DNA of 64,000 nucleotides from Dudresnaya verticillata (Eukaryota), in contig OZ374559.1 in assembly GCA_977862235.1 (NCBI GenBank), forward strand, positions 310,001-374,000, read 5' to 3'. The notes under the pieces were generated by a model. That model was given only the letters and a program-made list of their open reading frames with translations, ran no database searches and was not told the origin of the DNA. Positions 8,021 through 53,252 of this stretch are shown piece after piece. Numbering within the stretch: position 1 is the first letter of the stretch; every line of letters begins with the position of its first letter. A program made the translations under genes and the position numbers.

Positions 8021-10048
8021 GCAATCTATTTAGCATTCCAGATGGAAGGTATACGGATATTTGCCGAGCAACGACTCTGACAGAGGTAACTCTCCGAAAG
8101 GTGTACAAAGAGTTAAATCGAGAGCATTCCTCGCTGATTCCAGAGTATTATCAGCATGAAGAAAAAGGTCAGGCCAGTCGTCCTGATGGTAAGGGAAAGT
8201 TTTCGCGGTATTTATCTCGACCGTCCTCGCAGGAAGAACCCAAGCCGGGAGGAGACGTATCATAAGGGGGCGCTCCGGTGGGCGGTAGGCACCCGAGCAG
8301 GGAGCAAAAAGAAATGGAAGTGCCGCTCGAACCTTCTCCTCTCCCCAGATCGAGAAGTGTACCATGGAGCTAATGTAAATTCGTGCAAAGCGCTGTGCAA
8401 GCTATCCAACTAAGGAACAGGGCCGGACTCCTTTGGTTTCAACGCCTCTTCCCTGGACTGGGGTATATCATCACCTGCGAGCTAAAGTCAGCCTCCTGAC
8501 TGCTGAACATCATGACAAACGGATCGGAAAATCACGCATTGGTTCCTTCTCAAACGCGCTCCCACACGTCACGATTTCTGCTTCCTCAATTGTGATGTGT
8601 TGCCTCCTGCTGTGATAAGAAAAGACATCCGGTTTTCTGCACCCTATCTCCGTCGGATGTGTAGTATAGACGTCGGGTCGATCCGACGTCTGATACTTGC
8701 TGGTCCTAAGCCGCCACACAGACCCGTCGATGGGTAGCTGTTGGGGTTGGTAGAGCGGTGTCGGCCGCGTGCGCCCCGCAGGTGCGGATCAACGGCGTCG
8801 ATGCCGGAGCGCGCACGGGGCGTACCGTACGCGGGTAGGCACCGGCCGGACCCCAGCGTCCCTGTCGAAGGGCGGCAAGAAGCCGACGGAAAGGAAAAGG
8901 AAAGGGGAAAGTCTAGCGAGGCAAGGGGAAAAAAGGAAACCGCCCGCTGGCGTAAGGCAAACGGATCGAACCCGAAAAGGCTGGCGGCAAGCTTCAGCGC
9001 GAGCTGTTGCTTGCCCGGTTTACTGAGCCGTCGATGGCCGACGGTCTTAAATACCCTACACTATGTGCACTACGACTACTTCTACAGTAGGTGCGCCCCA
9101 CAACACCAACGCGGGAGGTGTGCGAGCGCGCGCCCATACACGTGTCGATACGTCCGGGTAACGGTTAGCCGTGGGCGCGCGGGGCGTAACGGGCAGCGGC
9201 ACTCTCAACGGCTCGATGCCGGAGAGCGTCACAGGGGCGCGCCGTGTGCGGCACGGCGCGCGGCCGCTGCCGGCAGCAATGCGGTCGACCGCTACTAATT
9301 CAACGAAAAAACTAAGGGCACGCTGCCCAACCACGACTCGCCAGCGGGCGTCATCGTGTGCACCATTGCAGTGCGGCGCTGCCAGCATACCTTACAGCCG
9401 CTGCTGATAGTGTGCTGACAGCTATACTACAAGATGTTCCGCAGAGTCCGCAGTGCCCACTCTGCACGTCAACTGTGCTTTGACCTAACAGCAATCAGTG
9501 CCCTCAAAAGCCAAAGACTTCTCTTTCCCTCGCGGGAAGACAGTTCATAATCTGTCTGTACTTTGGAGCTGGGAATTGTAAATGTGTTTTTGTGAAGTCA
9601 ACACTGCCAGAACCGCGGCGCTTGGTTTTATCGAAAGATCTGAGCGTAACCTGCTAACTCTGGGCAGGGGCGCACAGCCAAGCAATCAGGATGCTCTACT
9701 ATGGAAGGCAATTTTCGTCCTGACGGCAAAGGCTAGCCCAAGATCAGGAGAAAGTGCAGAACTGTCTATCGAGTGGGCACGCACGCGGATCTCTGCCAGA
9801 CAAAGAAGAGCGCCTGATGTGGACGATGAGACCGGCACTTGCGCGTGGGAACCACACCTTTTCGTAGCTTGGTGGAGTCTGATCGTCCCCGAGCTTGAAG
9901 TTTTGTGCATGACCAGGCTTATGTGCGACGACAAGGCATTCATATCCTGGGCCGAATGGCTTCGGAATCCCCCGACGTTTCCTCATCTCGTCCGACAACG
10001 TGAATGTCGTCAACATTCCGGGGGAGAGTGAAGCCATTGGATAAGTGA

Positions 10049-11094
10049 GTGTGGGAAGATGTATCGGAGTATTTCCAGGGTGCAAGGGACGAAATGGAGG
10101 TCGGACAGTTGCTGGACCTGGAATCATTTAACTTGCATGTCGCGATGTCTGCTATCGAACGGATGGACCCTAAGATGGATATTGACTTCGGCGAAGTCCG
10201 GAACGCTTCCGAGACCGTGCTTCCCTCACACTTATCGGACTTTGAAGTGATCAATATTATGGACGAGTTGCTGGCATGCGAGATGAGTTGGCTCGACGCC
10301 CACACATTGCCCCAAACCGTGTTCTCTTGCGTTTACATAAACGTGTACACGCAGTGTATGTATGAAATACCGCGGTTTGAGCTTTTCTCGTTTGTTCGTG
10401 TGCAGTTGGCGACGATGGACAGCATTCTTGACCTGGTCCTGGACGAGAAAAAGTGGCAGAAGATGAAGACTTCGTCGCTTCTACATACGGCTTCAATCTG
10501 CGACCGCTTTGTTCAGACCCACCCGAAGACGACCATACGATTCTAAGAAAGATTCTGCAGAAAATTGATTATCGTCCAGTCGAGGAAGCGAAGGACGCAA
10601 TTTCTTTGGCGGATGCAATCACCCTGCACGTACACATACAAGCGGAGATCTACAAGGCAATACAGTGCATGTCTGGGATTTCTTTCGAGTACCCTTTGCA
10701 AGAAGCAACCCAGCTGTTATCTTCTTTACAAGATTTGGTATCAAAGTTGGAAGCCTGTCCTCACAGGCTAGATGTGGATAAATAATTGATCCAAAGAATC
10801 TTCGATCCGTCTATTAACAGGCATTTGATGACATCCTCACCTCCTCGAACTGCTCCGCCCTTCGATAGTGCGGCATCTGTCCGGTATCTCCAGCGTCTTC
10901 TTTCTGAGTGGAAAGAATTGGTTAGTCTTGAAGACATCACGTTACCAAGAGATATGAAGCAGACCTCAGAATCTGCCTCACGAAGTTGTTCTCGTATTGA
11001 TCGACCTTCCATGATGCTCATGGATAACTACTCTGTCGAAGAGGTGTTGCTGTTCCCTGGAATGAAGCCTAAGGGTTACATAGAGTTACATTAA
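10049..11094 (+). pseudogene. NAA35: Captured N-terminal fragment of the NatC auxiliary subunit (NAA35/Mak10)
   Basis: WEDVS..GQLL..ESFNL..AMSAIERMDPKMD..IMDELLACEMSWL..HTLPQTVFSCVY is the Mak10 N-terminal signature; frameshift near 10450 and stop at 10783-10785. Confidence 0.8.
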
Positions 11095-11544
11095 TTGCAA
11101 TACCCTCAACGGGTGATTAAGGAGCTCAGCTGACCTAGGTCTGTAAAGCTACGTTCGCAGGAAGGGCTAGGTCGCTCTATGTAGACCTCGGGATGGGACT
11201 CTTCGCTCCTGGTTCAGGTTCGGACAAGGTCTTGGAGGGAATGATTGCGGCTGGGAATCGGGAAAATTTTACGTGTAAGAGGGAGCGCACGGGAAGAGCT
11301 AGGCATGGGCCAGTATGTGCGGTACTGCATACTAGAGCACGTGATACCGTTGCCAGTTGCGTTGCGCGGAAAAACGTAACCCTTACTGGTAAGTATCACT
11401 TTTCTGATGCGGGCTACGTGCCATCCTCTGCTGCAACACGCGCGCGCGTTGGGTCAGGTGTAACGTGGCACCGCTACGGTTGCAGGCCGATGTCGGATGC
11501 GCGGCAATGCGGTAGAGGAGCGACGGCCGACGCGAGGAAAAGCA

Positions 11545-12172
11545 GTTGTGTTAAGTCGGCGCGTGCGCGGCAATTGCCATTAATGAACATGCATGGCGGC
11601 AGTAGTCGGGAGGCAAGGTGGTTGTGCTGCGACAACGCGCCCGTGGTGACGCAGTTGCAGCACGGGAACAGGGGAGCGGCAAGGCAAGCGCGCAGTGAGG
11701 CAGGTGTACGGCGACGGGAGGGTGCGCGGAAAATTGTGGCGCAGCGAAGTGCGCGCGGGTTGTAGCACGGGAACAGGGGAGCGGCAAGGCAAGCACACAG
11801 TGAGGAAGGTGTCGGACGACGGGAGGGCGCAAAGAAAATTGTGGCGCAGGGAAATGTTCGTGTCTGGGAGTTGCAGTGGGTGTCGTTGCGCGGCTTCTGG
11901 TGCACCAGAGCCGCCACTGAATGGGCTTGGAGCAATTCGGGGAGCTTGTAAGGAGGGAGCCGGGTGCACGGCGGCACCACTAGGCCACGGCAAAATCTGA
12001 ACGTCCCCGGGCGAGCCGCGGCGCCAGCATCTGCTGGCGCTCCGGTGCCGCCACTGAGTGGGGCAGAGTGCAGTGCGGGGCCCACCTGAGCGGGGCGCCG
12101 GGCGCGCGCGGCCGCGCGGTGCGCACCACTGGGCCAGGGCGAAATATGGAAATAAAATTTAAAGGAAGTTTC
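11545..12172 (-). repeat. Inner part of the right TIR of element A, including a ~105-bp tandem duplication (11656-11849)
   Basis: Inverted similarity to ~960-1450; cacgggaacaggggagcggcaaggcaagc...aaaattgtggcgcag occurs twice. Confidence 0.7.
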
Positions 12173-12348
12173 GGCGGTGTACCGTGGCACCCAGGGTGCG
12201 GTGGGTGTCAATCAACATGTCGGAGCCAATGACCACCGTCTATACTCAACCGAAAAGTAGGGCCACGTCGCATATACTCAGTTGCTGATTGGTGGGGCTC
12301 TAGCCAATACATTTACTCTATACTCAACTAACAAACCCTTGGCACGCA
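12173..12348 (+). repeat. Left TIR of MULE-1
   Basis: Inverted match to 21238-21414; internal TATACTCA repeats. Confidence 0.85.
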
Positions 12349-12623
12349 GGGGCTGGTCAGGGGCCTTTCCGTGACCGATGTCTGTGTGACAGTGACGAAT
12401 TTCAAATCGCAACGACCGGAAAGCTCGCGGATCATGTGCAGCCGCAGCTGTGGATCCCACCCACGCCCACCCACCCCCTCGCCGCCATCGCCGCCATCCG
12501 TCCCCGCCCGCAGCCATCATGATTGCCTCTCTCTTCCACGTGCATTGCGTCCATCTCTAGCGTGCTTACCGGTCTGCCTCCTAACGGGCTCAACTCTTCC
12601 TGTGGCCGGCGTTCCTCCCTACA

Positions 12624-15600
12624 ATGTCACCATTGGCGGAATGGCGCTCCCCGCATGACGAGCGCATGACATTCGTTTCCCGCCTGCTTTCCGCCGGCTG
12701 CTTTTCTAACGATGCGCAAAAAGCCCGTGTCGGCCTACTTTTCAGTCTTTTGACTCGCATAGAAGCACGAGGCCCCCACAATACCCTATGGATTCATTTT
12801 GTAAGGTCTTCTGATATGTTGCCAAGTTTAATTCTCGAGTACGCGCTGTCTGACATCGATCTACACAGGACAGTCGCAGTTGCGACATGTGAATTCTCTG
12901 AGCAATTGCGACATTCAGCAATGCAGTCCAAGAAATGTGGAGATAAAGAGCCCGTTTCCTCGTGGATGATACAATACCTGAGAGATCTCGTCCTCTACGG
13001 TGGTGAATCGACGAGCAAAGTTATCCTACCATTGTGTAAAAACCTGCATTGGGGGCTTGTGCTCATTCAGGTGGTTTCTGAGAGCTGTCCCGTGTCTGCA
13101 ACCGGTCGTTTCGCTTTGGGAAAGGGTACGTTACACTGGGCTGATAGCTTTGGTGCTTCCCCTCGGCGAGGAGAGGAAAACCAGCTGTTGTGTTTTACTC
13201 GCAAGTGCCTGCAGGCGGCATTAGAAAACGTGCGTTGGACCTGCTGTGAAGAGAATTGGATGCTTCACAAGAACGGTATGCACTTTGCAAGGCAGAGGGA
13301 CGGCTATAGCTGTGGGTTTTATGTCATTGCTTCGGTATTGCAATGTTCGTCTGCTGGCAATCGTGGCGAGTTCGAACGGGTTCCTAAACACCCATACAGA
13401 CCGCATTACTCGCCCGGGGCGAGCAATACAATTAGAGATGCGTGCATCCGTGTAATGTGCAAGCATACCCTACGGATAATGTCGGGGAAAGGCCGTGACC
13501 CCGATGCCATTCGAAAATGCTACGAGCGGAAACTGTACGGCCTTCTGAGACAAATATGGAAATACCCGAACAGAACCCAGCCGCTCTCACGGGAACCGGT
13601 TCGAGTTGATTCCGCCAGTTCTGATCGCATTAGTGCACTGGAATTGGAACCTCTGCAATCGTCGGCACAGCGGAGCCAGGAAGTTCGTGAGCTGCCTTCG
13701 TTGAGCGAAATACTCTCTCTACCTAATCTGACGCCCAGCCATCCAACAACGGGACTGCACTCTGTGGTCACACGGTCTACCGCAGAAGATGTAGCCACAG
13801 AAGAGGATGCGAAACGCCATGGGAAAGGTGGTTATACCTACCCTGCCCGTCCAAAAGGCCCTGCGAGCGGCCTGGATTGCGGCCTGGATTGCGGCGCAGC
13901 AGCCCGTCCTGCGAAACCCGGAATCCTTCCGCCCAGAAATGTCGTGCATCCCACTCCGATTGCGCTACCTAATCTTTTTGGCAGCTCTGATGACGACGAC
14001 GACGACTTCATGGAATTAATTCATCCCCGCAAGCCTACCACGGCTGCTGCTGCGACTGTGAGTTCTAGCTCGTCAAACACGTCGTCGTCTTTGAGCGGTG
14101 GTAGCAGCGTTGCGGAAATCCCGCGCTCGAAAGTACCGTCCTCTGAACATCTCGAGATGTTGATCAACATTCCGGTTGTTCCGCCACTCGGAGCTGGCGG
14201 TTCGAAAGCAGAGAGGTTCTTCCTCTGTACTACAGCCAACGCCACGGAATAAGCAGCGTCATTCGCGCATTCTGGATTCTTCTTCACGAAGAACTACGTG
14301 CGAAGGACTGGCAACGGAGAAAATCTTGACTGGAAGGTTCGTTTCCGCTGCTTGAGACAGGGAACCCCCCTCGGCCACAGGGAGCCGTGCAAAGTGTCAT
14401 TCGTTTGTCATCGCCGAGTCGACGAAAATGGTTGGGATGTGTGGGCTGCTTCAGAGGATATTCATGTATCCCACAATCACCCAGCGGAACGGAAGCATCC
14501 GAGGTACAACTTCTCGGTAAAGCTCAGGGAGTACTACAGAGATAAGCACTTCGCAAGGATTCTCCCCCGGATGGAAGGAAGCTCCCAGGCCGATCCTGTA
14601 CCCATTCGTGATGCATTGTGGCCGACCAGTATCACGTTGAGGCCAATTCGTGCTAATCGTGCAGGCGTCTCATCATCCAGTGGTGGGTGTGAAGACCGCT
14701 CAACCACGTGGACCGGCACAGGGAGTGAAATCGCAATCGAAGGCGCAGGTGCGAGTCGGAGAGGTACGACTGAAGCATTGCCTGCGATGTCGGACGGTGA
14801 GAATGAGGAAGTGATAGACCTCTACAGTAGGAGAGACAGCGATACTGAGCGGGTGGCTGCTGTATCCAGTCCTATTCGGCGAAAGAGAACTGAAGCCCAA
14901 GGAACTGCGCCAATTGAGGTTACAGTCGTAGAATCGCCGACGGCAGATCTCAAGATGACACTGCAGTCTTTCGTGGAAAATATCGACGCTCAATGCGCTG
15001 GACGCGATGTCAAGCAGGGAATCATCGTGATATGCGAGAGTTTTGGTCTCGATGCAGTAGTGCTGAGGTCTGAATACGAGAAGGATAGGGATGGGATACG
15101 GGGAGGATTAAAGCGCTCAACATTTTCATGCGTGAGAGACGGGTGCGCTTTTGGAATGAAGGTCACAAACGCATTGGTAGCGCATAGCATTGACGATGGG
15201 CACGAGAACGGTTTAACATCGAAAGTCCGAACGTACTACATTTCTTTCTCCGAGAGGGAGCACAACCACGCGCCCGAGACTCGCAAACTGCGTTCTAGAT
15301 TTCCACCGCATATATTTGAGGAGGCAGACGATATGCACAACAAGTGCTTTCTTGCTTTCGCGGACGTCGTACGCTTCCTGGAGCGCAAGTACGGTTTCGT
15401 ATGTGACAACCGCACTCTGCAACGGCAGCTGACGAGACATAAATCACTGGGCAACCCAAAAGACCTCGCCGCACAGCGTTTAGTTCACAATCTCATGAAT
15501 ATGCGCAATGAGGATGCAGGTAGCTTCTGCCAACTCGTGCAAGGGTAGGAAGATGGTGCTCTACTTTCGATTTTGTGGTGCTCGTCTGAATGGAGAGCTG

Positions 15601-17960
15601 ACTACTACAGGTTCGGGGTGCTTCTCGGTGTTTGTGTGGACTGCAAGGCGAATGGGAACGAGTATATGATGAATCGGATCACTGTTAATGGTCGTACAAA
15701 CTGTGGGAGAGTATTTACTGCCATGATGGGTTTCCTAAGCGACGAAACTATGGAGTCCTTCCAGTGGTTCTTTCGAAAGTTCAAAGAGTGTTATGATGTC
15801 TTGCCCGCCATGATCGCGATGGATCAGAGCGCCGCATGTATGTCAGCTTGTCGTTCCGTCCTGCGAAGCACGTATGTCACATTGGACGAGTGGCACCTAA
15901 ACCAGAACCAGAAGAGAAACGCCATGTCTTATCTACAACGCATTCGAAGTCCGCATTTGTACAATGAAATGGCGGCGGAATTGTTTCTCTTGAGGAAGTC
16001 TTCGACGGTTCAACGATTTGTGGAAAGACGGACAGCTTTTGACAATACTTATTTCGTACAATATGGGATGCCACCGCCGAGATGGTTTAACTACCTGTAC
16101 TACAATGCGTCAAGAGCGCTCATTGACTGCTTCAATAAGAGAGGTTGCGAGCCTCGGTTCCTTTTACAAGGCAGCGGGTACACAGAAGCTTCCAACTCTG
16201 AGTACCGCGAGGTTGTGGCCGGGAAGAAGGTCGCAATGTAAATCGTTACGGAGGTTATGGCGAGGGTGACGGCGAAGAGAAGGGCAGCCAGAATTGCTGA
16301 TAAGCTCAAGTCGCGTTCGGCTTCGTATTGCTCGAAGTTCTCTACATCGTGCGGCATGAGTGCGGAAAGGGTTCAAAGGCTTTGCAGCCGGTATACGGAG
16401 TACTCACTTGATATGTTATACAAACGCAGTGTGTTGAAGTCGACTGAGTTCACTGTTTTGGAGTGTGGAGTAGAAACCCGTGATATCACTTCTTTGACTC
16501 TGAATCCTCGAAGCCGGTCTGATTCTCCAACCGGTACGCATGAAGTAGTCGTTTTCCGCGTCGGTTGGAACAGAACTGAACAGGCAGGGTCAGCAGTAAA
16601 TACCCTGCCTGTACAGCACACGGAGGCAGATGCAGCTGCTGGGGATGAAAACACTCAGACCCAAATAGATGAGGTAACCCCGATTGAAGAGGGGTTGCCA
16701 TCGGGACCTGCAGTTCCGAATGTGTGTAGGGTGCAGGGGACGGGAGAAGGGGAGGTTCAAACAACTGGAATGAGCTTCTTCTCATCTCTCATCAATATCA
16801 GTAACAGATTCGATTCTCGGCAGTCTGGAGCGGGACGAAATGGCGGCGGTCAATCAACCTCCGCGGCGGCGGCTCATGAATCAGATCCCCACGTGCAGGT
16901 GTGGCAGGAAAATCCAGCCCGTGCTTGACGATGTAGCAGAGTTGGCTGCAGCGCTGGCAACTATTGAAGAAGACCATCCACTTGTGTCATTCAACATAAC
17001 ATATGAGGTAGTGGTTGTTCATGTCGAAGATTTTGGATTGCGTTATACGTGCAGCTGCAGGTTATCCAGCAGTGCAGGGTTCCCTTGCGCTCATGTAGTG
17101 CGCGTCGCGGTTGTATATGATGAAGTGTGGGTTCTGCGTCCGACTGTGACCCGGACGATAGGACCCGTGATTCCATTAGAGAATCTCTTCCATAATTGCT
17201 GGGAGCTCGATGCAAGCAAGCGCACCCAGGAGGATATTCAACGCGAGCGAAACGAGCTATATCAGAGGTGGGCGAGGGAAAATGGCTTGGACAACGATGT
17301 TGGTGCATGCTGATTGCCGTCCAGGAGGACATCGTTACCCGGCAAGACGGAACGGCCGTTGTTTCCCGAGAGGTTGTTGGTGCGAGCGCGGATGACGCGG
17401 AAGATGAGGAAGCCAGACGCGAAAGAGAAGTTCGAGTTGAAACCAGCCGACATGTGTTATGGGCTGGAGCAACAAGTCTGACCACAGAGATTCACAGGGT
17501 TGCTTCAAACGCAGGGGAACGTCGCGTTCGTGAGTTGATGTTATATCTCCGCCAAGGTCTCACAATGCTCCGTGGGGGACATTCACCCTTTTCGTTAGAC
17601 GTATGCGGTCAGACAGTTGCTCCTTCGATGAACCCTCTACAAAATACTGTACAAGGCCGTGCCCCCGCGGCCGCAGGAACAAGTCGGCAAGCTCGGGGCT
17701 CACAAAGCAGGCCACGCCAATCTGTTGGTAGGCGATACAATCAGAACCACCGCCCTGGGTTCCAGCCCGTTATGATGAGAGAAGTTAATGTCCAGGGACC
17801 AGGAGAGCTACAAATACCTATCAGCAACCCGGCGAGGATAGCAGGCAGGAGAGGTCTTGGGCAGAAGAGAATCCGTTCCGCAGCTGAAGGATGGGGACCA
17901 AGTCGCAGGCAACGCCGCGGCTCAGGATCCTCCCAGCAGTTTAGTAACCCGGAACAGTAA
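12624..17960 (+). pseudogene. Ulp1/C48 protease + two WRKY/FAR1-type Zn fingers + MULE DDE transposase + SWIM finger fusion
   Basis: NLHWGLVLI..WADS..RQRDGYSCG (Ulp1); C..C..HNH fingers; GFLSDETMESFQWFFRKF..IAMDQSAA..LDEWHLNQN (MULE); CSC..GFPCAH (SWIM). ORFs 12624, 14298, 15573 and 16257 share one frame, separated by single stops. Confidence 0.9.
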
Positions 17961-17963
17961 ACG

Positions 17964-20861
17964 CTACTTCCTACTCTTGCTCCTCGTGTTACGGCGTTCC
18001 TGCGAAGGAGCATCTCGCGAAGTAGACCGGTCGCGCGGGCCCTCGCGATCCTGTGAATCTTCCGCGTCCGCGGCATTCTGCATTATGACATCATTACCGG
18101 AAGCTGCAAGTTCAGTCTGTTTCTCGGCAACCTTTGCAGTGGGCTTTGCCGCACGCGGTACCTCAATGGCGTCAACCTCGGCGACGTTTGCATCTTTTGA
18201 AATAGGCTTCACGCTTGAAGCATCCACGGCGGGTTCATCCGCAGCCGTGTCCTTTTCAGCAGCAGAGGACGGTGTTGGGGCTGCATCCGGCGGTCCTGAT
18301 GGCTTGTCGATTTGATTCTCGACATCCTGACCCCCTGTAGAGCTGGGTTTGCCCGCAGCAACAGCATCGCCTTTCAGCGCTTCACAGGCGCCCGCTGCAC
18401 CAGGATTGTCTGCAGGAACGCTTCTAATTACCGTGGAGGTGGGCTTGGCCGCAACCTCGGGCTGTGGGGGACGAGAGGCATCGTTGAAGCGCCTTGGCCG
18501 GTTACGTCCCAAATTCGCCGCCGTGCTCGGGGCAAGGCCGGAGCCTACTGCAGGGCCAGCTTCTGTAGGTGAGACCGAGCCCTGTACACCCCTTGTCCCA
18601 TGTGCACCTGTAACTATGGCTGGTCTCATAACGGCATCATTGAAGCGATCTGGGGCTTGGTCGTAGTTTGAATCACCGTTTTCGCCCTGGCCGCCGTTGT
18701 TTCTCCCACCGCCATTCCTCCCGCCGCTGCCACCGCCGTTGTTGCCACCTCCATAGACACTGCCGCGCGTGGCGGCGCAATTGTCGCTCCCACCGCCATT
18801 TGTTCCTCCACCGTTGTCACCGCCGTTGCCACCTCCATTGCCGCGTCCGCGGTTGTCGTTCCCTCCACGATTGTTGTACCCTCCACCGCGGTTGTCGTTG
18901 AAACCATTTCCGCGATACCCTCCGCGGTTGCCATTGTAGCCGCCCCGATTTTTGTATCCGTCTCGATTGTCGTTGTACCCGCGGTTGTCGTAGCCGTCGC
19001 GGTTGTCGCTGCACCCGCGGTTGTCGTAGCCGTCGCGGTTGTCGTTGTAACCGACGCGGTTCCTGAACCCACGGTTGTTGTTCTACCCTCCGCGGTTGCT
19101 GTAGCCACCGCGATAGTCATCATAGCTATCGCGGTTATTGTAGCCACCACGATTTTCATCATAGCCACCGCGGTTGTTGTAGCCGCCGCGGTTGATGTAG
19201 CCACCGCGGTTGAGGTAGCCACCGCGGTTGTTGTTGTTGTTGTTGTACGCGCCGTGGTTATCGTTGTGACCGCCACGATAGTCGTTGTGGCCCCCACTGT
19301 TGTCATTGTAGCCACCTCGGTTGTCGTCGTTGTAGACGCCGCGATCGTCCTTATACCCGCCGTTGTTCTGCCTGGTGAGGTCCGGGAAAGGCCCATGGCT
19401 ATACGGCCGATCGCGATCATCTCCGAAATAGCCCTGCTTGAGCGGGACGATCCTTCCATTCACAATACCTTCCATCAGAACGGCTTCCTCATGTGCAAGC
19501 GGGGCAATGCACCGCTGCGTCTCCTCTGCGTTGATGAATTGAATGATCGTGTTGCGCTGATTCTTGTAGGCGTCGACATTATGCCGACAATGAATGACTG
19601 CCGGGTCGCTAGGATCTTCAGACGCGCACTGCTGCCTGACGAAAGTGAGAATGCGACAGTGCCGATTGCAATCCGTTGAGCGAAGGCGCTGATCTTGGTC
19701 GAGGAAATCAAATCGCCACCTTCCATCCTCTGTCTTATCCATGTGCTCGAGGAAGTCCTGCCACCATGCGCCAAACTTATCAGTACAAAGACGCTCCATA
19801 GCGTGAATAATGTCTAGCCCTGGCTCCATGTCTTCCTTCCCTGGTCCCCAAACCCTCTGGCGCTTGATAATGTTGCTCACCTGCTCCCTAAACCACTTTC
19901 GCTGCCTCTCAGATGCAGACTTGAGGCAAGCCCGCTCCTTCCTGCGTTCCGTTTCGCGCTCTGCCGGAGACATATCCTGGAAGCGGGCATTTCGCTCATC
20001 CCTCGAACGTCCACTACTGAAAAGTCTTGAAACTTCTCCGCGGCCCCTCCCACGGCCGCGACTACGTGAAGCACCACGTTCGCGACCACGTCCGCGACCC
20101 CGACCTCCTCCTCGAGCAAAACATTCCTGCTTGTCGATACGCCTACTGGTCGTCGTCCGCATGTCCTGGAAAGGGAAAGCGTTGTAGTCCACGATTTGCT
20201 TGAATTCGGTAGGGCGACCGTTACCGACGAAGAGCGAAGCAGCATTGCGACACGAATTATGTACAGCAGGCGGCGGCACTGTGTTCCCATGGTCAACTGC
20301 AGCTGGAACACGCGCAGTAATCGGTATGTTTCCTAGCCCAGGATGGTTGTAGGGAAGGAAAGGTCCCGGGTTGGATGGCACGTACCCCAGAGCGGGAAGG
20401 CCGATGTTGTTACCCAAAGCCGGCGGCGGCGTCGGATTGTAGATGTGGGCGGCCGCTGCGCCTTGCTGCGAGGTTGCAGCCATCAATGCGGCAGCACGAA
20501 GCGCGTTGACTTGTTCTTCTGTTCGTGACGCCATTGTTTGGCGCATGTCGGCAGCACCGGTACGGTAGGCTTGCTGAATACTCGCTTGAAGTGATGGTTC
20601 GTGAATTGCAGAGAGGGGAGCCATAGCTGGAAGTTTCATGGCGGCGGCATGCACAGCTCCGCCGAAAGCGCTTGGCGTCGCCGGAATCATGGCGCCGATG
20701 GTGCTCGGCGCAGTCGGAACCAAGGCACCATTTGCGGAACGTGCGAGGCTCCCGGGAGCTACGATGAAATGCTGGTTGGTGTGTGCGACGCTGCTCCCGG
20801 GGTGAGCACCTTGGCTCGCCGGCGTGGGCGCAAGGACAAAGTTGGGGTGCACCGGCTGCAT
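17964..20861 (-). pseudogene. Second, convergent MULE-1 gene: ~966-codon low-complexity protein with an RGRG box and an N/D-N-R-G-G-Y repeat domain (one in-frame TAG)
   Basis: ATG at 20861 (MQPVHPNF); frame continues through TAG at 19083-19085 into ORF 17964-18629. Confidence 0.65.
18690..19367 (-). repeat. Coding minisatellite: repeated aaccgcggtggctac-type units followed by a Gly/Asn-rich tract
   Basis: Repeated gtagccaccgcggttg / ccgcggttgtcg on the + strand; translates as NNRGGY/DNRDGY repeats. Confidence 0.85.
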
Positions 20862-21237
20862 CGCGGTAATGGATGCGGGAGAGGGAAGCGCGTAAGAGAA
20901 GGAAGGACGGGTAAAGAGAGCGCAGTGTCCAGAAGCAGAGCGTGAAGCGCGCGAGCGGGGGCGCAGTCGTCGCCGTCGGTAGGTAGGCTGCTGTTCGATG
21001 GGCTCGTGGGTGGGGTGGTGGGCGCGGGTGGGCGGTGAACAGCGGCACGGGACAGCTGAAATGTTTTTTCGCACACAACACAATGGCGCGGCGATGACGC
21101 CGGTCGGATCCGGCGCGTTTTGTTCTGCGCGCGCGCGCGCGCTCCGCTCGGCGTGACCGTCACATCGCCACCCCGCGCCAGCCGCCGCACCCACTAGTGG
21201 GTGCGAAGTTCCACGCCTCAGTGCGGGTGACCATTGT

Positions 21238-21414
21238 GCATGCACCAAGTACTTGTTTTTGAGTATAGAGTAAATGTATTGGCCGAGACACCCGCCAATC
21301 AGCAGTTGAGTATGCGCGACGTGGCCCGAATTCTAGCTGAGTATACAATGCCACCATTGGCTGAGTATAAGTTGATTGACACCCGCCGCACCCCGGGTGC
21401 CACGTTACAGGGCC
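21238..21414 (-). repeat. Right TIR of MULE-1
   Basis: Reverse complement of 12173-12348. Confidence 0.85.
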
Positions 21415-21423
21415 GGAAGTTTC

Positions 21424-21636
21424 GGAATAAATCAGAACTTTCACGAAAGTTTCGGGCGGTATAGACGCTATATGTAGAGAGCCATAACTTCCGTTGTATA
21501 GGTGCAATCGCAAAACGGATTTCACCCCTCTTCTCCATTTCAGCTCCCCTTTCCAAAGAGCTGAAGAATTATCTATTCCATGGGGGGTCGTGTTAGACTG
21601 TTTGCCAAAATTTCTTCTGAAACTTACGATAGTGTT
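21424..21636 (-). repeat. Outer part of the right TIR of element A
   Basis: High-identity reverse complement of 746-~960; ends ...atagtgtt, followed by TSD tctg. Confidence 0.85.
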
Positions 21637-43800: not shown

Positions 43801-43876
43801 CTCTCAATTACTTGGCACCTTCTCATTAGCCCCCTCACCGGTCTCCTCCGTCGCCGTTCGGCCGGCGCTCGCCGTT

Positions 43877-44190
43877 AACACTACTTTAGAGATATTCAGA
43901 ATCAACTTTGCAAAACAGTACCAAATTGTACCCCGGTTTCTTTAGCTCTGTGGAACCGGGAGCGGGCGCTGAGAACAACGGTGGAATCCGTTTGTCTGTA
44001 GCGTAACTAGTTCAGAAGTTACGGCGCACTAAACACAGTCTGTACACCCCCAAACGTTTCCGAAAGTTTCACACTTTTCAGAATTTCTGTAAAACAATTT
44101 TAATTAGATTTTCCCTCGCCCTGCGCTCGCCCAGGGCCGCCAGCGCACTCGCCACACCACTGCTCTCGCCCCTGCCAGCCGCTCCTAACC
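43877..44190 (+). repeat. Left TIR of element B
   Basis: aacactactttagagatattcagaatcaactttgcaaaacagtacc... recurs inverted, ending at 52929. Confidence 0.9.
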
Positions 44191-44999
44191 ACCGCTCCTG
44201 CTCGCCGACCTAATTTCCGCGCGTGTGCTTGTCGCTCCAGCATATCAACCTTCCATCTTAGATGACCGAGCGCCATGGATCGGGAAGATTCCAACTGGCT
44301 CGGTGCTTGTGGAATTTAGTGGCTTAACAAGCACTTCGCGTACCCCCGTCAATGTACAGAAGAAGATTCGCGAGAGTCTTCACCAAAACTAGTGCGCAAT
44401 GATTGCATACCTGCATTGAGTAATTTCCCAATAAAGACCACACCATTGAGTTGTAGCGTTAGTCCGCAAGTATCCAGCACGGCTTAAGACAGACGGTAGG
44501 TCATTCTGATATTGGCTCCCAAGAGCGGGAAAGGTCTGTGGCAGCCATTTTAGGGCTTGCCCGCGAAAATCATGACAGTTCGAACATCGCAGCGGCGAGG
44601 AGCCTGCGGTCGACGGCGCCGACAGCCTGAAGAACGGGTGACAGAGCAGCCAGTATGTTTTGGCTTTGACCGCTTCATCAATTACTACAAGATAGCCCAC
44701 TGAGCGGTACTTCAACGTACGCAGTAACAAAATCTTGCTTGGTTGTAGTCGTAGCAGTAGTCTGAATATGAATATCTGAGTCGCCTTCGCTATTCGTAAG
44801 ATTATATCGCTGATACGCGGCGCGCTCATCAACTTCTTCTATCCTTCCCAGGGCGCTATCGAGGTTAGTTGATTCAGTTAACTTGTGCTTGGGAGTAAGC
44901 TCTCCTGCTTCCACATCATCAAACGAGCCCTTTCCGGTTGTGCCGATTAGAAGGGAAGTTGAATAGCATCCACCACAGGTCTTCCTCCACGTCGCAGTC

Positions 45000-46353
45000 A
45001 CAATCTGCCAAGGTGCAACGGCAAAAGTAAGCCGAGTGGCCGCCTTCTCTCGACGACTGTCGTCTGTTGACACTGATATTAACAGCCAGAGCATGTTCAT
45101 ACGCATCTTGCTCTTCTTTTCGAGCATTCATGATTCGCTGTGCACCCCTTGCTCTTTCTTCATAGTCCTGGAAAAGTTCGTCGATAACCCGAGCTATCGG
45201 TAGAGGTGGGTCTCCAGCACCAGTTATTGTGCTTGACGTCTCAACCTTTCGAACTGCGAAACCCTCCCATCCAGGGCCGGCGATCCCGGACTTATATGAC
45301 CAACCGAGGAAAGCGTTTCAGGAGGGATCTCCAACATAACTCTCTCCATTTGCGGGCCAAAGTTTCCGCCCTCTCGCTCCCCTAGTTTTCTAAGCGCAGT
45401 CTGCACTGCAGCAACGCTTCGCATTTCCTGTTCACGGTTCTCCGATACACGGAGCACGGCTGTTCAAACAGTTGATAGCGATACACCCAGCCCCTGAACG
45501 TAGTTATGCAATCGTTCAAGTCGTGCTTCCGGCGAATCCTGTTGCCTATCTCCTTCAGGCTGGGAAACGCGTTCCAAGAACCAGACTAGCCCCTTGACCA
45601 CCTTCCTTCCAGCTTGCCACAATATTTTCTCTCCCCAGTGCCCCAATCTCTCAAGGGCATTCGAGTTCCTACTTCACCAAAGAGTGCAGTTGTCATAGAG
45701 CTCTCTTGACTTATTGGTTCTCGTCGCACCTTCCGCCATGCTTCTTTGCCTGTCGCACCGAGGAATAAGAGTTCCTCACCACCAGTTGAGAGAACGGCAT
45801 GAGTCGCAACTCTTCGTAGAAAGCGCTCGAGGCCGCGAAGGCGCTCCGTATCATACGCGTAGCCATGCCGTAGCCGGCCCGCAAGCGCCATCGGTGGGAG
45901 AGGCGGTACGATAACACGGAATCGGAGTCGCTATTCCAACCACGCAAAGTCCGCAATGGAGCGTCATACAAGGTAGTATTCGGGTTCTGCAGATGGGCTC
46001 CGGACAAGCCCATGCGTCCCCGGCAGCGGTGAAAAGGATTGCGCCGTCCCAAAGGGCCATTTTCTTCTTTAACGCACAACGTAGATTCCAGATGCGGCGA
46101 CCTTCTCCCCAGGTGAAACGAACAGGGAGTCGTCAGATCGATCCACGACCCCAACAACTAGTGGCGGTGGATTGGAGTCACGCTCCCTCGGGTCATCAAT
46201 AACGACCAGTATGGCGTGAATATCCGTAGCGAATGCGTTCCCGGCAGGTGACGAAGGGGGCGGTCGCGAGCGCTCTGCAACGGCTTCAAGCAAAGGGTCA
46301 TTTCCGCGATTCGAGCGCAGCAACTTCCGGGCCTGCTCTTCGAAGCCGCGCAT
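45000..46353 (-). pseudogene. Captured sorting nexin (PX-BAR) gene
   Basis: PX: RSIADFAWLE.RLR..IVPPLPP..ERLRGLERFLRRVATHAVLS; BAR-like helices (LERLHNYVQGL; DELFQDYEERARGAQRIMNAR); multiple stops. Confidence 0.75.
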
Positions 46354-47479
46354 GTCAGCGTTACGCAAGCGTGGTGGATCGCGGTGGCGCGGAGCAGCAA
46401 GGGCGGAATTGAGCACTTGTAGATCGCGCGGGCGTGGCCGGCGCGGCACTGACACCGCGTCCGGTAGCGTGTGGCCAGGCGACGGCCCGTCGGAGAAACA
46501 CGAACGGAGTAGCAGGTCGCGACACGAAACTTTAGGTTTTGCAAAGGGCGAGCTCCGCGAAACTGTAGGTGTAGTATGGATAGTACAACATAGCTTTTCC
46601 TGTAAATGATCTGTCAAATACTTCTGATTGGGTATTGATACGGCCAGAGCCGGAATATCTAAAAAGCTTTCGTATTTCATACGAAAGTAAAGCTTTTCAA
46701 CAGATATTTTCCTTGCGGGCCCTGGGACAACGAAACAGCTGCTCTTTCAGAGCAGAAAGGGAAGCTTTCAGAAACCTTTTCGTCTTTTCCAAGCAATTAG
46801 GACTGTCATCGTATTATCAATAATACGGAATAGCTTCTCCCGCACGAGACAAGCACATAGCTATCGGAGCTTTTTCGTTCCTGCTGCGCGAGGAGCCCCG
46901 CGAGCGGCCTTCTCGCCCGCACACCCATCACGCCGTTTTGGCACCGCGGTGCACAGCTTGTTGGACGGGACGGCACATGTCCACCCGTGCCGCTCGCACG
47001 CCGCAATCACCCGCCTTCTCACCACTGCGTTGGCCGCCGCACCGGCGGCTGCCCGACACAACCAGCGTGCGCGCCCCTGTCTTGTGTGCAGCGCAAATCT
47101 GGAGGGCCCCCCCGCGTGCTGCTCCAGATTTCGCTCCTGCCATTTCTTGGAAGCTCGCGGCTACGTCAACCATTAACCGCTCTTCGTTGCCCATTCCCAA
47201 GATTACCTTCTCATCAGGCGATGAATTGCCTCCCAGCTTCTTGACTACGACGCGGACCGAATTTGTCAGCCCCGCAAACGAAACGTTGCAGTCTGGTCGA
47301 TTCTGTTCTTATGACAAACACTGCAGGGGCGGTGACGTCTGTGCGGAAGGAATCTGTATCTGTAGAGCGCCAGCAGGCTGGTGTCGGTTTATTGTAAGGC
47401 GGCCTTGCGAACCGTCGCGCGCTAATCTCAGGAAACTCGCCCAATTCGACGATTACCATCAAAAGCTCGTCCCGTGAGT

Positions 47480-50400
47480 TCATGTCAATGCCATCTGATT
47501 GACGTCCCAAGCAAACACGCTTTGGATCTCACTCACAGTTGTCGGTATCTCACCGTCTACCTCCCGGTATGAGTACGGGTATCGCAAATGGGAGCTTTGC
47601 GTCGCCGCTTTGAATGCATAGACTGCGACGAGGTGCTGACCTTCTCTTTGAAAGGAGGATAACGCAGTACCATGGATGCTATCCCGAAATCGCGCCCCGT
47701 CCACCCCGAACTGAACCTTGCAAGTTCCTACAGCCTTCTTTTCAATGAAGAGAGTGACTTCATCTCCCCCATTGATTTCTCGGCGTTGGGTCACATCTTC
47801 CCCTTCTTCCTGGTTCTCATTCCGTCCCCTGACTTTTGCAGGCACTGCTCCTGTCTCGACGTTTTGCCGCTTTCCCAACGGTTCCATCTGTTCAGGCGCC
47901 CCTTCGGAACACAATCGTTTACGCTCTGAGCTACCCGCCTCCCAGGCCGCTTGTTCTGGGCCCGGTGCATATTCTTTTTCAGACGCCTGTTCGGGAGCAG
48001 TACATATTTCCTTCAAAGGGGCTACCTTGGTTACATGTTGTGCCTCTTGCACCAGTCGCGATAGCCTTGCGTGTGCATGTCTGAACGTGTCAGCATTTTG
48101 CTAGATGCATGTGCATCTCCTATCAGTGGCAAGACACGCTATGCCGATCGTCATCGTGCCAGCGTACGTATCCAGAACATGCCCTTGCTCTACACAGAAC
48201 GTCGTCAGAACTTCCGCGAGCAAGTCAACATTCTTTTCTTCGGTCAGCACCGGGGATCTTTTCTGAGGTCTCAACAGTTTCTTCTTGGAGACTGGAACAG
48301 ACGACATGCATGCGAACTTCTTTTTCTCTTGGCATTTCGATAGGTGATAGGGGCTCTTCAAGTCTACCTTTGAACCGGATGGGTGTATACCCGGTGCTTT
48401 CCCAAAAACGGCTATGTCTGCGCCATTTTGTGGCCTTTCGTTGCCCCTGGATTCCTGAACAGTACCGGTATCCTTCAGAATCACGAATGCATACGTTGGG
48501 CAGTCGAAACCATTCTTTGAAAGTGCCTGCCTCATGGGCTCAAAGGTCTGAAATGACACAAACAGGAACACCCAATCACCCGGGGCGATTGTCTGCCTGC
48601 AAAACGCAGCCAACTCGTTCATTTCTGAAGTGCTGAGGTAGTTGTCATACCCTTTCCCAGCTCGAGACTGTGAGGCAGGGGTGCCATAAGGGGTGTCCGA
48701 CAGAATGAAGTCAAACAGTTTGCTCTCATTTTTCCTGTACTTTTGGTTGTAGTCCTGCCAGCGCATTTGGTGACACCCAAGGCCTTCCGATGTCAGTATC
48801 TCGTCCGGTGTTGCGACATCGTCTCTATTATCCTTTTTCAGCTTCTTAACAGTACCCAATCTTTCCGATCTTATCGTAGTGGCCGTTGAGGGCAAAGGGA
48901 TAGGTGTGACAGCGTCTCCTTCATCCCCGTTGATCACAGGAAGGGACTCATCCGGAGTTGTGCTTCTCGCAGTGGAGCCCAGGTGGTCGGGATCACTGCG
49001 GTTGTCGTCGATCTCCTTCTCCGTATCTGTCTGTGGGGCACATTGTGAAGCAGTTTTGTTCAAGAGCACTCCAGACGGTACATGTTTCATGTGACTATCA
49101 GGGCTCTTCTCTTCTTCAGGATGTTTTGGATCTGTGCTAGACGATACTCGTGCCTGCGCAACTTCTAATCTGCGGTTGTATTTCTCTATTTTCTGTGGGA
49201 CCTCCCCTGGGCAACTGTCTCGGTACATTGTAAGAATCGACTTCAGTATGTGATTGTTTCCACGATTCGACATAACGTCCAGGTCCAGTTTGCGCGTGTG
49301 CAACAGATTGGTCCTCAGAACGGACATAGCTGAAGACCAATTCGGGGATTCCCTCAGGCTCTCGAAGTTCCTAACTTCTACCAACGCGTCTCTTGCTCTC
49401 TCCAATTCCTCGACTGTGACCTTGTACGGTGCAGGTCTGAAATTATGCATTCTGGCCCTTTCCCGCAGCCTGTTCAAGGTACATATTTGAGCCTCTACCC
49501 CGTCTGGCGACCGGCCGGCATTCATAAACACTGTAGCAGACTTCAGTGACGATATATGGATAAAATCCCGATAGACTCGGCAGTCTACCGAGGACCTTAC
49601 GAGCTGCCTGGAAATTCCAGCCCCTGCACTTCCAAGGGAAGTCGAGGCCGCCAATTCTGCATCCTCCTGTGTTTCAATCTCCCCGATAGTATCTAGAACC
49701 GATCTATGCAATCGAAGAACAACCTGGGCTGTTTGCCTGATTATGTTCTCGTGAAGATGAGAAGCACCATAAAACGCCGCGGCAACTGCTTTCGCTGTCG
49801 GCTCTTTTCCATTGGCTCCAGCCTGCAGACGGTCGACTTCTTCGCGCAGACCTTTCAGTGTGTCAAAGGACGTATTTTCTACATAACAAGCAGACTGATT
49901 TTTGCGGTTCTGGTGCCTTGCAAACTGTTTCAGAACCTGCAGAGACGCCCCGCCCTTGACATGCATAACCGGCCACGAGAATGTCTTCCATATCTCGTAG
50001 TGTATGTCCATGAGCTCAATACTTTCAACCAGCCGGTGCATGCCATCTACAACGCCGTATCACACTCCTCTAGAACTGGTGATTTCCTTTATCTCCTTCT
50101 CCGTACGGTACGCTCCCTCCTCATTCCGAGTACTTCGAAAATAGTCTCCTACATGCTTGCGAAGGGCTCCCGTGAGCTCGATAATCACTGGCATATCGCT
50201 CCCTGCAACATATCCTATCGACTCGGGAGCATGTGGCATCCCCTGATTTGTACCCCCTCCTAGTCCGATAAAAATACGCTTGAGCCGTTCGACGCCGGAC
50301 CTAGATATCGGCCTGACCTTGGTGAGGGGTACACAAGCCCGGGGATCGACACGCTTCAGCATGGAACCGTCAAGCAGATCAGCGAACAGAATCTGTTGCT

Positions 50401-50581
50401 GGTGCAGACCGACTTCATTACGGTCATTTGTAACGGCGTCTTCTTCCTTCTGTTGGACTTTTTGCCCATGGCCACATGCAGGTGGTCTGTCGCAAGTGCA
50501 GAGAGATGCTCGTGATGAACAACTTGACTTCGGACTTAGGGAAAGTGCAGTAACTAGGTCGGAGATATCGGCTGGATCCAA
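47480..50581 (-). pseudogene. ParB/Srx-like domain + beta-class N6A/N4C DNA methyltransferase + TNP1/DUF8039-like domain (~1030 codons, 2 in-frame stops)
   Basis: ORFs 50060-50581, 48101-50041 and 47480-48052 share one frame; VRPISRSGVERL..YGVVDGMHR; FDFILSDTPYG (motif IV, 48686-48697); EEKNVDLL..VLDTYAGTMT (motif I). Confidence 0.82.
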
Positions 50582-51322
50582 CTCCTACACTGTTACTGCT
50601 TCAAAACCATTCTAGCAGTGAAAACGAAGCCATTTTACTGTACCGGAAACCAGTCTTCGGGGCCTGCGGGCGCAGGAGTATGTGCAGTCACTACAACTCA
50701 CTTTTGCCCAGACAGGAAGAGCTAGAGGCACCATAGTGATGACCATACAGAGTTGAAAAGCGCGCATTCTCGCGGGAATCACAAGGCAAGTATAGCTCGC
50801 GGCATATCTCACGGTAGGAATGTTTCCAACGCATATGCGTATGAAGTCGCACCAGAATTATTGGTAATGCCCTCGTCGTACTCAATCCTTCCCCCATATG
50901 TTTCAGACCGGGAGCAGAAACGCTCCTACTGAGAACTTCGTTGATCCCGTTGCCGGTAATAGCACTGTACAGAGGCCGGTATGTCCATCAGTTTCAGAAC
51001 TGTGAACCACGTCATGGGAATCTGAAGGAGGTTTCCTGACAATGTGCAGACACATGTCATGTGTCCTCCGTTTCCGCGATGTTTTATGGCTATAAAAAAG
51101 TCGTGAAAAGTGTGGACACGCCCTTTCCGTGTCACAACCCGGTTATAGCACTTTAATACTGTGCTTCCACATACGTGAAAAAATTAAAGTCTGCTGCGGG
51201 AGACTTGTACGGCATTCCGAACTCTCCAGATCTTACAAGATGGCACATGTCGAAGGCCCCTAGCCCACGAATTGGTCGCGTTCTGGCCAGCACGAGGAAA
51301 GTGACCTTGGTGCACGTTAGAG

Positions 51323-52193
51323 ATGGGCGACATCACACAGGCCATCGAAGTGGACGAGGCGATAGAAATCAGCAGTGATGAAGAAGAGAGTGACCCCGAA
51401 CACTCAGCAGGGAGTCCTGATTCGAGGACAGGCGCAGGTCAGGAAACAGAATGTAACAAAGAGGAATCTGCAACGTCTGGGAAGGGCAGAATGCATATTC
51501 TCGACCTTCATAAGTACTGCCAGCCTGGGGAGACACTTGAGGAGGCTGTGCAGTGAATCGGAGAGTATGTCATTGTTCGAGAAGTGAGCAGTGCCATCGA
51601 GGAGAAGAAGGAGGTACTCGGCCTTGCCGACCTCGGTGTGCGCCTCTACGACAGAAGTAATTTCAAAGAGCTCTACGAACGTGTGTACGGGGCAGAATCA
51701 ACACAGTCAGGACCAAAATCATGTTCAGAGCGTTTCTTCAGGGGGGAATACAAGTTCGCGTACAACGGGCGGGAATGGCAGGAGTTCAAGAGGCGCAGTA
51801 AGAAAGTAAACTCTGCGACACGTGGATCGATCCGCACTGCGGTTGCATGGATGAGGTTAAGAATGGAGAACAGAAAGAACCACCAAGGCTGGCAAAAATC
51901 ATCCGCAGGCGATACAATTGCTGCAGGCATGCAGCAAAGATGAGAGAAAGCATCAAGGACATTGGGACTATCCCGTACGAGTACTACAGAAGGTGAAGTT
52001 TAGATACGATAAAGGTGACGTTTTCGCAGCAGCGTGCAATGGCGACGGACGGTGTGCATTGCGATACCGCTGGTTCGAGACAGAAGGTGAGCACAGGAGC
52101 AGAGTGGGAGCGAATTACGGGGTCTTGGGTGTACACCCACGTGGGACGGCAGCGATAAGGGGAAGTGGCGCGAGGCGGACTGAGGAGGGATGA
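51323..52193 (+). pseudogene. Unknown gene divergent from the methyltransferase gene
   Basis: ORFs 51323-51556 and 51584-51943 are in frame across one TGA; acidic N-terminus; no family recognised. Confidence 0.35.
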
Positions 52194-52514
52194 AGCGAGG
52201 GTACTGTTAAAGTCTGTCAGTGCATGTCCTGACTGCAGTGCTTGTGCGCAGGATTGACACATGGAGGTAGAGCGACCATGCGCAGTGAGCAGGGACGCCT
52301 AGCAAGGACGTCAAGTGGCTGTTGGGCAAGCACGGTCGCCGCGCAGGGACGCCCTTCAGGTACCTGACGTCATGTACAGGGGCGACGCGGGCAGGCCGGG
52401 TGCGCGGATGCGCGAAGGGCTGGCACTTTGGGCAGGGGAGGGGAGCAGGGGCGACGACAATTGTGCGCGCGGCATTGTACAGGGGCGGCGAGCGGGGGTG
52501 ACGGCAATAGTTCG

Positions 52515-52628
52515 CGAGGCGTGGTGTGCGTGGCGTGGTGCAGGGGCGGCGTGGTGCGCGCCGCGTGGTGCGGGGACGGCGCGGTGCATGGACGGCGCGG
52601 TGCAGGGACGGCGCGGTGCAGGGGCGGC
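52515..52628 (+). repeat. GC-rich ~15-bp subterminal minisatellite
   Basis: ggcg(c/t)ggtgcaggg(a/g)c-like units in tandem next to the right TIR. Confidence 0.75.
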
Positions 52629-52929
52629 GGGCGGGGGCAACAGCGGTGGTGCAGCGAGTGCGCTGGCGTCCCTGCTGCCGCACAGGGCGAGGGAAAATCT
52701 AATTAAAATTGTTTACAGAAATTCGGAAAAGTGTGAAACTTTCGGAAACGTTTGGGGGGTGTACAGACTGTGTTTAGTGCGCCGCAACTTCTGAACTAGT
52801 TACGCTACAGACAAACGGATGCCACCGTTGTTCTTAGCGCACGCTCCCGGTTCCATAGAGCGAAAGAAACCGGGGTACAATTTGGTACTGTTTTGCAAAG
52901 TTGATTCTGAATATCTCGAAAGTAGTGGT
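52610..52929 (-). repeat. Right TIR of element B
   Basis: Reverse complement of 43877-44190. Confidence 0.9.
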
Positions 52930-53252
52930 CGTTGCGGACAGGGTGGCAAGTAACGTTACAGTGTGACCAAAGGTAAACGACCGTTACAATTTTCGAATCG
53001 AAATGGTTTCCCGCCCGGGGGCTGTCGATGGGGACGAGATCATCATGGTCCCCATCATCGCCCATCGCCCCTCCCCGCCATCGCCTATCGCACCTCACTC
53101 ATCGCGGGCATCCCACCGACGTCCTACCCTCCCACCCGCTCGCCGCTACTGCTCACCGCTAGCTCCACCCGCTCACCGCTCAATCGATTGACAGCTGGGT
53201 GGTTCCACTCACGTGCCGCTCACGAGGTCACGAGGCCCCAGCCACAGAGACG

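Follow-up and report, generated by a model that had tools for sequence, protein, structure and literature searches.

In the brown alga Ectocarpus, the DNA transposon Sola1-1_Ec32 carries the gene for a 1104-aa protein in which a ParB domain is joined to an N4C/N6A methyltransferase (MTase), and the element displays AACCG termini, a 282-bp imperfect terminal inverted repeat (TIR) and a 4-bp target-site duplication (TSD) (Dinatale et al. 2025, PMC12477816). In red seaweeds (Bostrychia), Petroll et al. (bioRxiv 10.1101/2025.02.11.637652) describe the accessory proteins PAG2, which combines PF01555 with SET, and PAG3, which combines a ParB-like domain with a 2-oxoglutarate (2OG) oxygenase; the elements that carry them are of the Plavaka, Mutator, Zisupton and Fanzor kinds. 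This report concerns a 64,000-nucleotide stretch of Dudresnaya verticillata DNA (assembly GCA_977862235.1, contig OZ374559.1, positions 310,001 to 374,000, forward strand), hereafter the window, in which a TIR transposon, E1, holds a broken ParB-like/helix-turn-helix (HTH)/MTase/tail fusion gene. The reading favoured here, with a probability of approximately 55%, is that this is a dead transposon accessory gene, the intact form of which is predicted to be an N6-adenine MTase that binds and marks the DNA of its own element.

Sola1-1_Ec32 and E1 share a ParB-MTase fusion of ∼1.1 thousand residues, imperfect TIRs of ∼280–300 bp, AAC termini and a 4-bp TSD, and the Ectocarpus paper proposes the same self-modification hypothesis. 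The brown-algal element is 21.5 kb long, encodes its own transposase and harbours an intact, transcribed gene, whereas E1 is 9 kb long, transposase-less and contains a dead copy. The two proteins are compared by description only, and in the available text of that paper no tail domain is mentioned. PAG2 resembles the window family as a red-algal accessory N6-MTase of transposable elements (TEs) that moves between TE superfamilies; unlike PAG2 as described, the window family is SET-less, possesses a tail and combines ParB and MTase in one chain. No Plavaka transposase was detected by Pfam in E1; PAG1 and PAG3 have no Pfam family. More distant parallels include the bdelloid N4CMT, a horizontally acquired eukaryotic beta-class MTase tied to TE control, which differs in that it carries SPPY, writes N4-methylcytosine (4mC) and is host-domesticated rather than transposon-carried (PMC8885841). 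Other eukaryotic ParB-HTH-Dam fusions derive from a different MTase group (Iyer 2016).

An earlier note on this DNA, made by a model from the letters alone, implied that a transposon-borne ParB-MTase with a self-marking role would be novel; for algae, the idea is already in print (PMC12477816; Petroll et al.). Two things were not found in print in the literature searched: a SET-less ParB-MTase-tail architecture tied to an expansion in Asparagopsis, and a tail module common to transposase, writer and oxygenase-like proteins. No published description of the tail or of a red-algal ParB-MTase-tail fusion was found, although one may exist in subscription papers, in Repbase Reports, in Iyer 2011 or in the supplements of Petroll et al. 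Can eukaryotic transposons write an epigenetic mark for themselves? For algae, this was proposed in 2025 on the strength of domain calls alone. The present family has many members with an intact DPPY motif and others that are natural variants of the catalytic site, and its target, a TIR element, is defined, so that the idea becomes directly testable. The window copy is of value only in that it ties the gene family to the ends of the element.

Element E1 and its ends

The element and its boundaries are as follows.

43873..43876: left TSD, CGTT
43877..52929: TIR DNA transposon E1, non-autonomous, 9,053 bp, likely Sola1-type (TIR pair, 4-bp flanking repeat)
43877..44198, plus strand: left TIR, starting AACACTACTT
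52610..52929, minus strand: right TIR, starting ACCACTACTT on that strand
52930..52933: right TSD, CGTT

The TIRs are 91% identical over 321 nt, with the MTase fusion gene between them; when 17 end offsets were scanned, CGTT/CGTT was the sole flanking-repeat match for E1. The gene is thus carried inside a TIR element, as the earlier note had stated. An EnSpm label for that element finds no support: the CACTA string is located at TIR bases 3–7, the flanks at this position are TAA and GTC with no 3-bp duplication, and the 4-bp duplication and AA(C/T)AC ends point to Sola1. E1 is probably of Sola1 type, since Sola1-1_Ec32 is likewise listed with long imperfect TIRs, ends of AAC type and a 4-bp duplication, and by this analogy the E1 ends fit Sola1 better than EnSpm. 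A Mutator/MULE assignment was rejected as well, as a G-starting TIR and a 9-bp duplication are not present at the E1 ends. Published comparisons include giant EnSpm elements in Chondrus and Plavaka ends with a 2–3-bp TSD (PMC6431247, PMC12730594). No transposase was identified by Pfam within the E1 interior or the scanned parts of a sister element, E2.

A broken reading frame of an intact family

The fusion gene runs on the minus strand from 50581 to 47480 and spans 1033 codons in one frame with two internal stops; the plus strand of the same interval is closed to translation. The first in-frame ATG does not occur before residue 74, and residues 1–61 are hardly conserved among relatives. The parts of the gene, all on the minus strand, are listed from its 5' to its 3' end.

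47480..50581: ParB-like/HTH/beta-class N6-MTase/tail fusion pseudogene (translation, two nonsense codons, alignment with homologues)
49877..50398: ParB/sulfiredoxin-like domain, residues 62–235, broken by the TGA at 50060-50062 (Atlas, sulfiredoxin model match, weak DndB and DGQHR matches, profile)
50033-50047: DGMHR motif, residues 179–183
49667..49876: predicted HTH DNA-binding region, residues 236–305 (low-confidence model, Z 4.3–5.4; 49% mean identity among homologues)
49157..49666: conserved all-helical domain, residues 306–475 (models, conservation)
48047..48802: beta-class amino-MTase domain, residues 594–845 (PF01555, homologue model against M.MboIIA, M1.HpyAVI and M.BceJIV, Foldseek)
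48686-48697: motif IV, DTPY, residues 629–632
48155-48172: motif I, DTYAGT, with D at residue 804
48101-48103: TAG in place of a conserved Glu of the MTase domain
47483..47779: beta-rich tail domain of ∼100 aa (tail profile search, motif alignment)

The first nonsense codon is a TGA at residue 174 (50060-50062), where all 13 aligned full-length homologues have W; the second is a TAG at residue 827 (48101-48103), where E is found in 12 of 12 homologues and in the paralog carried by E2. At residue 630 the window copy has T, encoded by ACC, a codon one base away from CCC, and P occupies this position in 13 of 13 aligned full-length homologues. Overall, the copy deviates at 21 of 135 nearly invariant columns of the alignment; over ∼140 such columns, ten close relatives show 2–12 deviations and three distant ones 22–50. 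Judged by this alignment, the window copy is a pseudogene of an intact family, because the relatives have W and E at its stops and DPPY for its DTPY. The reconstruction in the earlier note is borne out: a single frame of ∼1030 aa broken by TGA and TAG, the reading of these stops as W and E, the derivation of DTPY from DPPY by one base change, and the presence of every motif quoted, namely VRPI..GVERL, VVDGMHR (residues 177–183), ILSDTPYG, EEKNVDLL (781), VLDTYAGTMT (D804) and the tail string IHG..YPYS..FAWD.

The methyltransferase domain

The window frame scores 30.2–31.7 bits against Pfam N6_N4_Mtase (PF01555), above the gathering cut-off of 26.7 bits, and the homologues score 35.6–63.5 bits with the exception of fragment P0030, at 15.4. 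Fold comparison was made with an AlphaFold model of a relative, P0004 (mean pLDDT 51, MTase core mostly 65–91). The best matches were M.MboIIA (Z 17.4), M1.HpyAVI (17.3), M.BceJIV (16.7) and CcrM (16.5), followed at a lower level by the bdelloid N4CMT (14.7) and M.PvuII (14.0); the alignment with 1g60 (Z 17.4) covers 192 residues with an rmsd of 4.3. A Foldseek search with the homologue model agrees with a beta-class amino-MTase fold. Motif IV (DTPY, 629) is N-terminal to motif I (DTYAGT, 804), which is the permuted Rossmann order. The profile score, the motif order and the M.MboIIA match together sustain the beta-class assignment of the earlier note, and its suggested check for a Rossmann-fold amino-MTase is answered by the same fold match and by Foldseek. 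M.MboIIA, M1.HpyAVI, M.BceJIV and CcrM share the permuted Rossmann fold, the order of motif IV before motif I, and DPPY. Identity to bacterial and phage beta-class N6A MTases amounts to 17–22%; those enzymes are without ParB, HTH and tail, and motif I is altered in the family.

Motif IV reads DPPY in 17 of 26 aligned family members, DPPF in one and a degenerate form in eight (DPGx, DLPF, DPPS, QAPV, QVPR, DPPC, EPPS and DPAY), all eight belonging to a more distant set. These eight members (P0056, P0063, P0066, P0070, P0075, P0081, P0085 and P0136) have an open full-length frame and are possible pseudo-enzyme lineages. The Glu after motif I is found in all 26 non-window aligned rows that cover the column. 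In bacteria, N6A enzymes carry DPPY and N4C enzymes SPPY (PMC8885841); the DPPY of the family thus favours adenine rather than cytosine as the target, and N6-methyladenine (6mA) over 4mC as the product of intact members. Intact family members are predicted to be S-adenosylmethionine-dependent N6-adenine DNA MTases.

The N-terminal half

The assignment of the N-terminus to the ParB/sulfiredoxin group, proposed in the earlier note, is upheld on moderate evidence that consists of several weak, concordant lines. The D, G, H and R of DGxHR are invariant in nine of nine rows of one family alignment and degenerate in some distant members. Atlas neighbours of the region are phage ParB clusters (0.90–0.92). 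Pfam returned DndB only below threshold (E 0.008–0.14) and a weak DGQHR match, with no ParB_N match to the domain. Residues 16–166 of an N-terminal model (pLDDT 46) match Arabidopsis sulfiredoxin 6ky4 with Z 4.6 and rmsd 4.7 over 85 of 89 residues; this match stands at rank 24 and is the sole row of the top 50 over that part of the model. Residues 176–240 of the same low-confidence model match HTH proteins (Z 4.3–5.4), and a Foldseek search with it gave no match.

Mean identity among relatives is 41–49% in the structured domains, 26% in the tail and 12–16% in the linkers, and the conservation of the MTase domain equals that of the ParB domain (47%). As the domains are conserved while the linkers diverge, these sequence comparisons show selection on the whole fusion.

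The ParB-MTase-tail family

A search with residues 60–860 retrieved five full-length relatives, 38–44% identical, among 7,998 candidates scored, and a search for shorter proteins produced six fragments among 1,730 candidates. An MTase-domain profile yielded 18 proteins among 7,994 candidates, of which 16 belong to the ParB-MTase-tail family. No family relative was found in two metagenome contig scans (167 and 140 pattern matches) or in viral (50) and GTDB (27) contig scans; phage matches involve the MTase domain only, at ∼24–27% identity. In a tree with phage and bacterial MTases, the family stands apart as its own clade (support 99/98).

The nearest outside relative among those tested appears to be P0031, a protein with MTase and SET domains and PAG2-like by architecture, which scores 83 bits as against at most 62.5 for 11 phage and bacterial MTases. 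It is placed as sister to the family on a long branch with weak support (75/95). A SET domain was found in P0031 only and in none of 19 family members (E up to 0.5–1). Residues 1–130 of P0031 hold an INGAHR motif, and the family ParB profile matches its N-terminus weakly, with a score of 21.05 against 20.46 for the best of 60 shuffles; a ParB domain may likewise form the start of PAG2-type proteins.

Asparagopsis taxiformis has 66 N6_N4_Mtase (PF01555) genes, compared with 4–6 in three other red algae (PMC12115072). These genes, mostly intronless, appear from their motifs to belong to the window family, and the available text of the paper reports the expansion without a link to transposons, ParB or a tail. 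At least eight of the PF01555 proteins in its supplement show the family motifs by eye and no SET. Between Ata00660 and the C-terminal part of P0025, ∼27 of 397 residues differ (>90% identical, by eye). By these sequence resemblances the ParB-MTase-tail family likely accounts for the 66-gene expansion. The same Asparagopsis table also includes an intronless Ulp1-MULE-SWIM gene like one present in the window.

The tail domain

The earlier note had compared the tail with the TNP1/DUF8039 domain. The name finds no support, as neither Transposase_23 nor DUF8039 was matched in 11 family tails or in 46 tail relatives (the Pfam release used may lack DUF8039), but the association with transposons holds, since the domain also heads predicted transposases of the DUF7869 type. 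A literature search for 'DUF8039' found no paper, and the tail had no match in Pfam, among PDB sequences or in the Atlas.

A tail profile gave 199 matches at E 0.001 among 1.84 billion representative proteins, and the details that follow derive from the best 150. Among the matches listed are 42 new proteins of at least 350 aa: 16 have the MTase before the tail (eight of these with the full architecture), 22 have the tail alone and four are repeat artefacts. Pfam analysis of 46 tail matches detected PF01555 in 16, DUF7869 in six and SET in none (E 0.01). The six DUF7869 proteins have the tail domain at their N-terminus and, behind it, the motifs DNCxRENK and GHTHxDID, which we take to be a Sola transposase signature. 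In eight of the 22 tail-only proteins the tail lies ahead of a DGxHR domain, and five of these eight also have a C-terminal HxD oxygenase-like motif. The ParB region of the tail-DGxHR proteins matches the family ParB profile with a probability of 88% (score 43.6 over 23 columns; best of 25 shuffles 18.3). Pfam and PDB searches did not confirm the oxygenase domain; these proteins share the layout described for PAG3 and are termed oxygenase-like on the basis of the HxD motif and that description.

The occurrence of the tail on predicted transposases, on the MTase fusion and on ParB-2OG-like proteins suggests a shared targeting module, which would offer a route by which the specificity of a mark, that is its aiming, could arise.

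A sister element with a second copy

A second element in the window has the same type of ends and contains a fragment of a related gene.

746..21636: sister element E2, TIRs homologous to those of E1, 4-bp duplication TCTG/TCTG
7390..8019, minus strand: paralog fragment in E2, C-terminal MTase part and tail (36% identical across 257 columns, with E where the E1 copy has TAG)

The TIRs of E2 and E1 can be aligned over ∼240 nt and agree at 31 of their first 45 bases. TCTG/TCTG is located at the same end offset as CGTT/CGTT of E1; the right end of E2 was placed after the E1 result was known, with a 3-base deletion allowed. Given the homologous TIRs and the paralog in E2, the gene is present in both of two elements that have diverged within a single TIR lineage.

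Proposed role and alternative explanations

On the favoured reading, the intact protein would be made from an element, and its ParB-like domain, together with the HTH behind it, would load on DNA. The tail would confer element specificity, through binding of the ends or docking to the transposase; the DPPY enzyme would flip an adenine and write 6mA near the bound site; and the mark would keep the element open or active, or time its transposition. E1 itself would depend for its movement on a transposase supplied in trans from another locus. We infer each of these four steps, namely DNA loading, tail targeting, 6mA writing and the effect of the mark, from sequence. A broader and much more tentative proposal is that DNA transposons of seaweeds possess a DNA-modification system of their own, directed by a swappable module of ∼100 aa that is found on a transposase, on a ParB-adenine MTase and on a ParB-2OG oxygenase. 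If this were true, a writer and an eraser or hypermodifier would be brought to the element ends, and 6mA or a derived base would be a self-mark that escapes host silencing.

Several observations weigh against the role as a self-marking enzyme. Motif IV is degenerate in eight of 26 relatives whose frames are long and open, and motif I is atypical family-wide (DxYA/GGTxT), its third Gly being lost. Support for the ParB assignment is moderate (model pLDDT 46, Z 4.6), and no parS-like repeat array is present in E1, where the commonest 10-mers occur three times each. The Sola label of DUF7869 derives from motifs. Linkage to a transposon is shown for two copies, both in this window, and E1 and E2 also hold captured host genes (PX, MAK10, TIR-domain), so that cargo status is possible for the MTase gene too. 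The altered catalytic motifs lend some weight to an accessory factor whose main activity is to bind DNA, as an anti-silencing factor or transpososome scaffold in the manner of VANDAL/VANC, with an MTase domain that is dispensable or only reads DNA. Other enzymes, too, are found joined to the ParB and tail modules, and the MTase domains of DIRS1 provide a precedent for inactive TE-borne MTases (PMC4738411). Nevertheless, 18 of 26 members retain DPPY or DPPF, every covering row has the Glu that follows motif I and the MTase domain matches the ParB domain in conservation, which makes such a binding-only role rather unlikely. That an active enzyme marks DNA broadly, in the host genome or at insertion targets, or writes 4mC, instead of marking its own element, appears improbable: the beta class does include N4C writers, with M.PvuII and the bdelloid N4CMT among the fold matches, and E1 is devoid of a parS-like array, but the motif is DPPY and not SPPY, the nearest folds are N6A enzymes and the tail is common to predicted transposases.

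An origin outside the element is harder to sustain. A horizontally acquired and domesticated host gene might have been caught as Pack-type cargo, like the sorting-nexin and MAK10 fragments, and both the host fragments in E1 and E2 and the lack of a transposase in E1 would be in keeping with this. Against this, two separately diverged copies (36% identity) are located in elements with related TIRs, the family has dozens of divergent members, one seaweed contains 66 PF01555 genes, the tail is common to DUF7869 proteins and similar genes have been published on algal transposons; cargo capture is accordingly quite improbable. That the gene belongs to an insert or contaminant of bacterial, phage or giant-virus origin is very improbable indeed. 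The domains are of prokaryotic type, and Pandoravirus and phage MTases lead the viral fold search; yet no family member was encountered in the viral, metagenome and GTDB contig scans, phage matches are confined to the MTase at ∼24–27% identity, the family forms its own clade, the flanks consist of eukaryotic TEs (MULE, Zisupton-like, gag-like) and the gene is set in a TIR/TSD structure in eukaryotic DNA.

Other genes and neighbouring elements

Two further features are located inside E1.

45781..45984, minus strand: PX domain from a sorting-nexin-like host gene, captured as E1 cargo and now decayed (PF00787, 31.7 bits, cut-off 21.6)
51323..51943, plus strand: interrupted open reading frame (ORF), divergent from the MTase gene (translation; no Pfam match and no match elsewhere in the window)

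The interrupted ORF may be a second accessory gene of E1. E2 has captured a TIR-domain gene fragment (PF13676, PF01582; 2683-3441) and an intronless MAK10/NAA35 fragment (PF04112; 9940-10900). Its right TIR is interrupted by a Mutator element (12173-21414) with G termini, a TIR of ∼170 bp and a 9-bp duplication, GGAAGTTTC. This element contains a Ulp1-MULE-SWIM transposase (12585-17960, plus strand) and a long convergent ORF (21332-17964, minus strand) with NRGGY-type repeats and no Pfam match. The transposase was considered as that of the E1/E2 family and rejected, because it belongs to the nested Mutator element, with its own 9-bp duplication, that splits the right TIR of E2.

A second decayed Ulp1-MULE-SWIM-like transposase gene lies directly to the right of E1 (53400-58500). 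Between E2 and E1, a decayed gene with CxC and YDFAC..H..C..EQRN motifs (31698-34119; no Pfam match at E 0.01) is presumably, from these motifs, a Zisupton/KDZ-type transposase. Two direct repeats of ∼600 bp, 72% identical and 5.4 kb apart (22715-28762), surround a decayed PIF1-like helicase identified by eye, and a frameshifted gag-like ORF of a long terminal repeat (LTR) retrotransposon, also recognized by eye, is found at 60787-63480.

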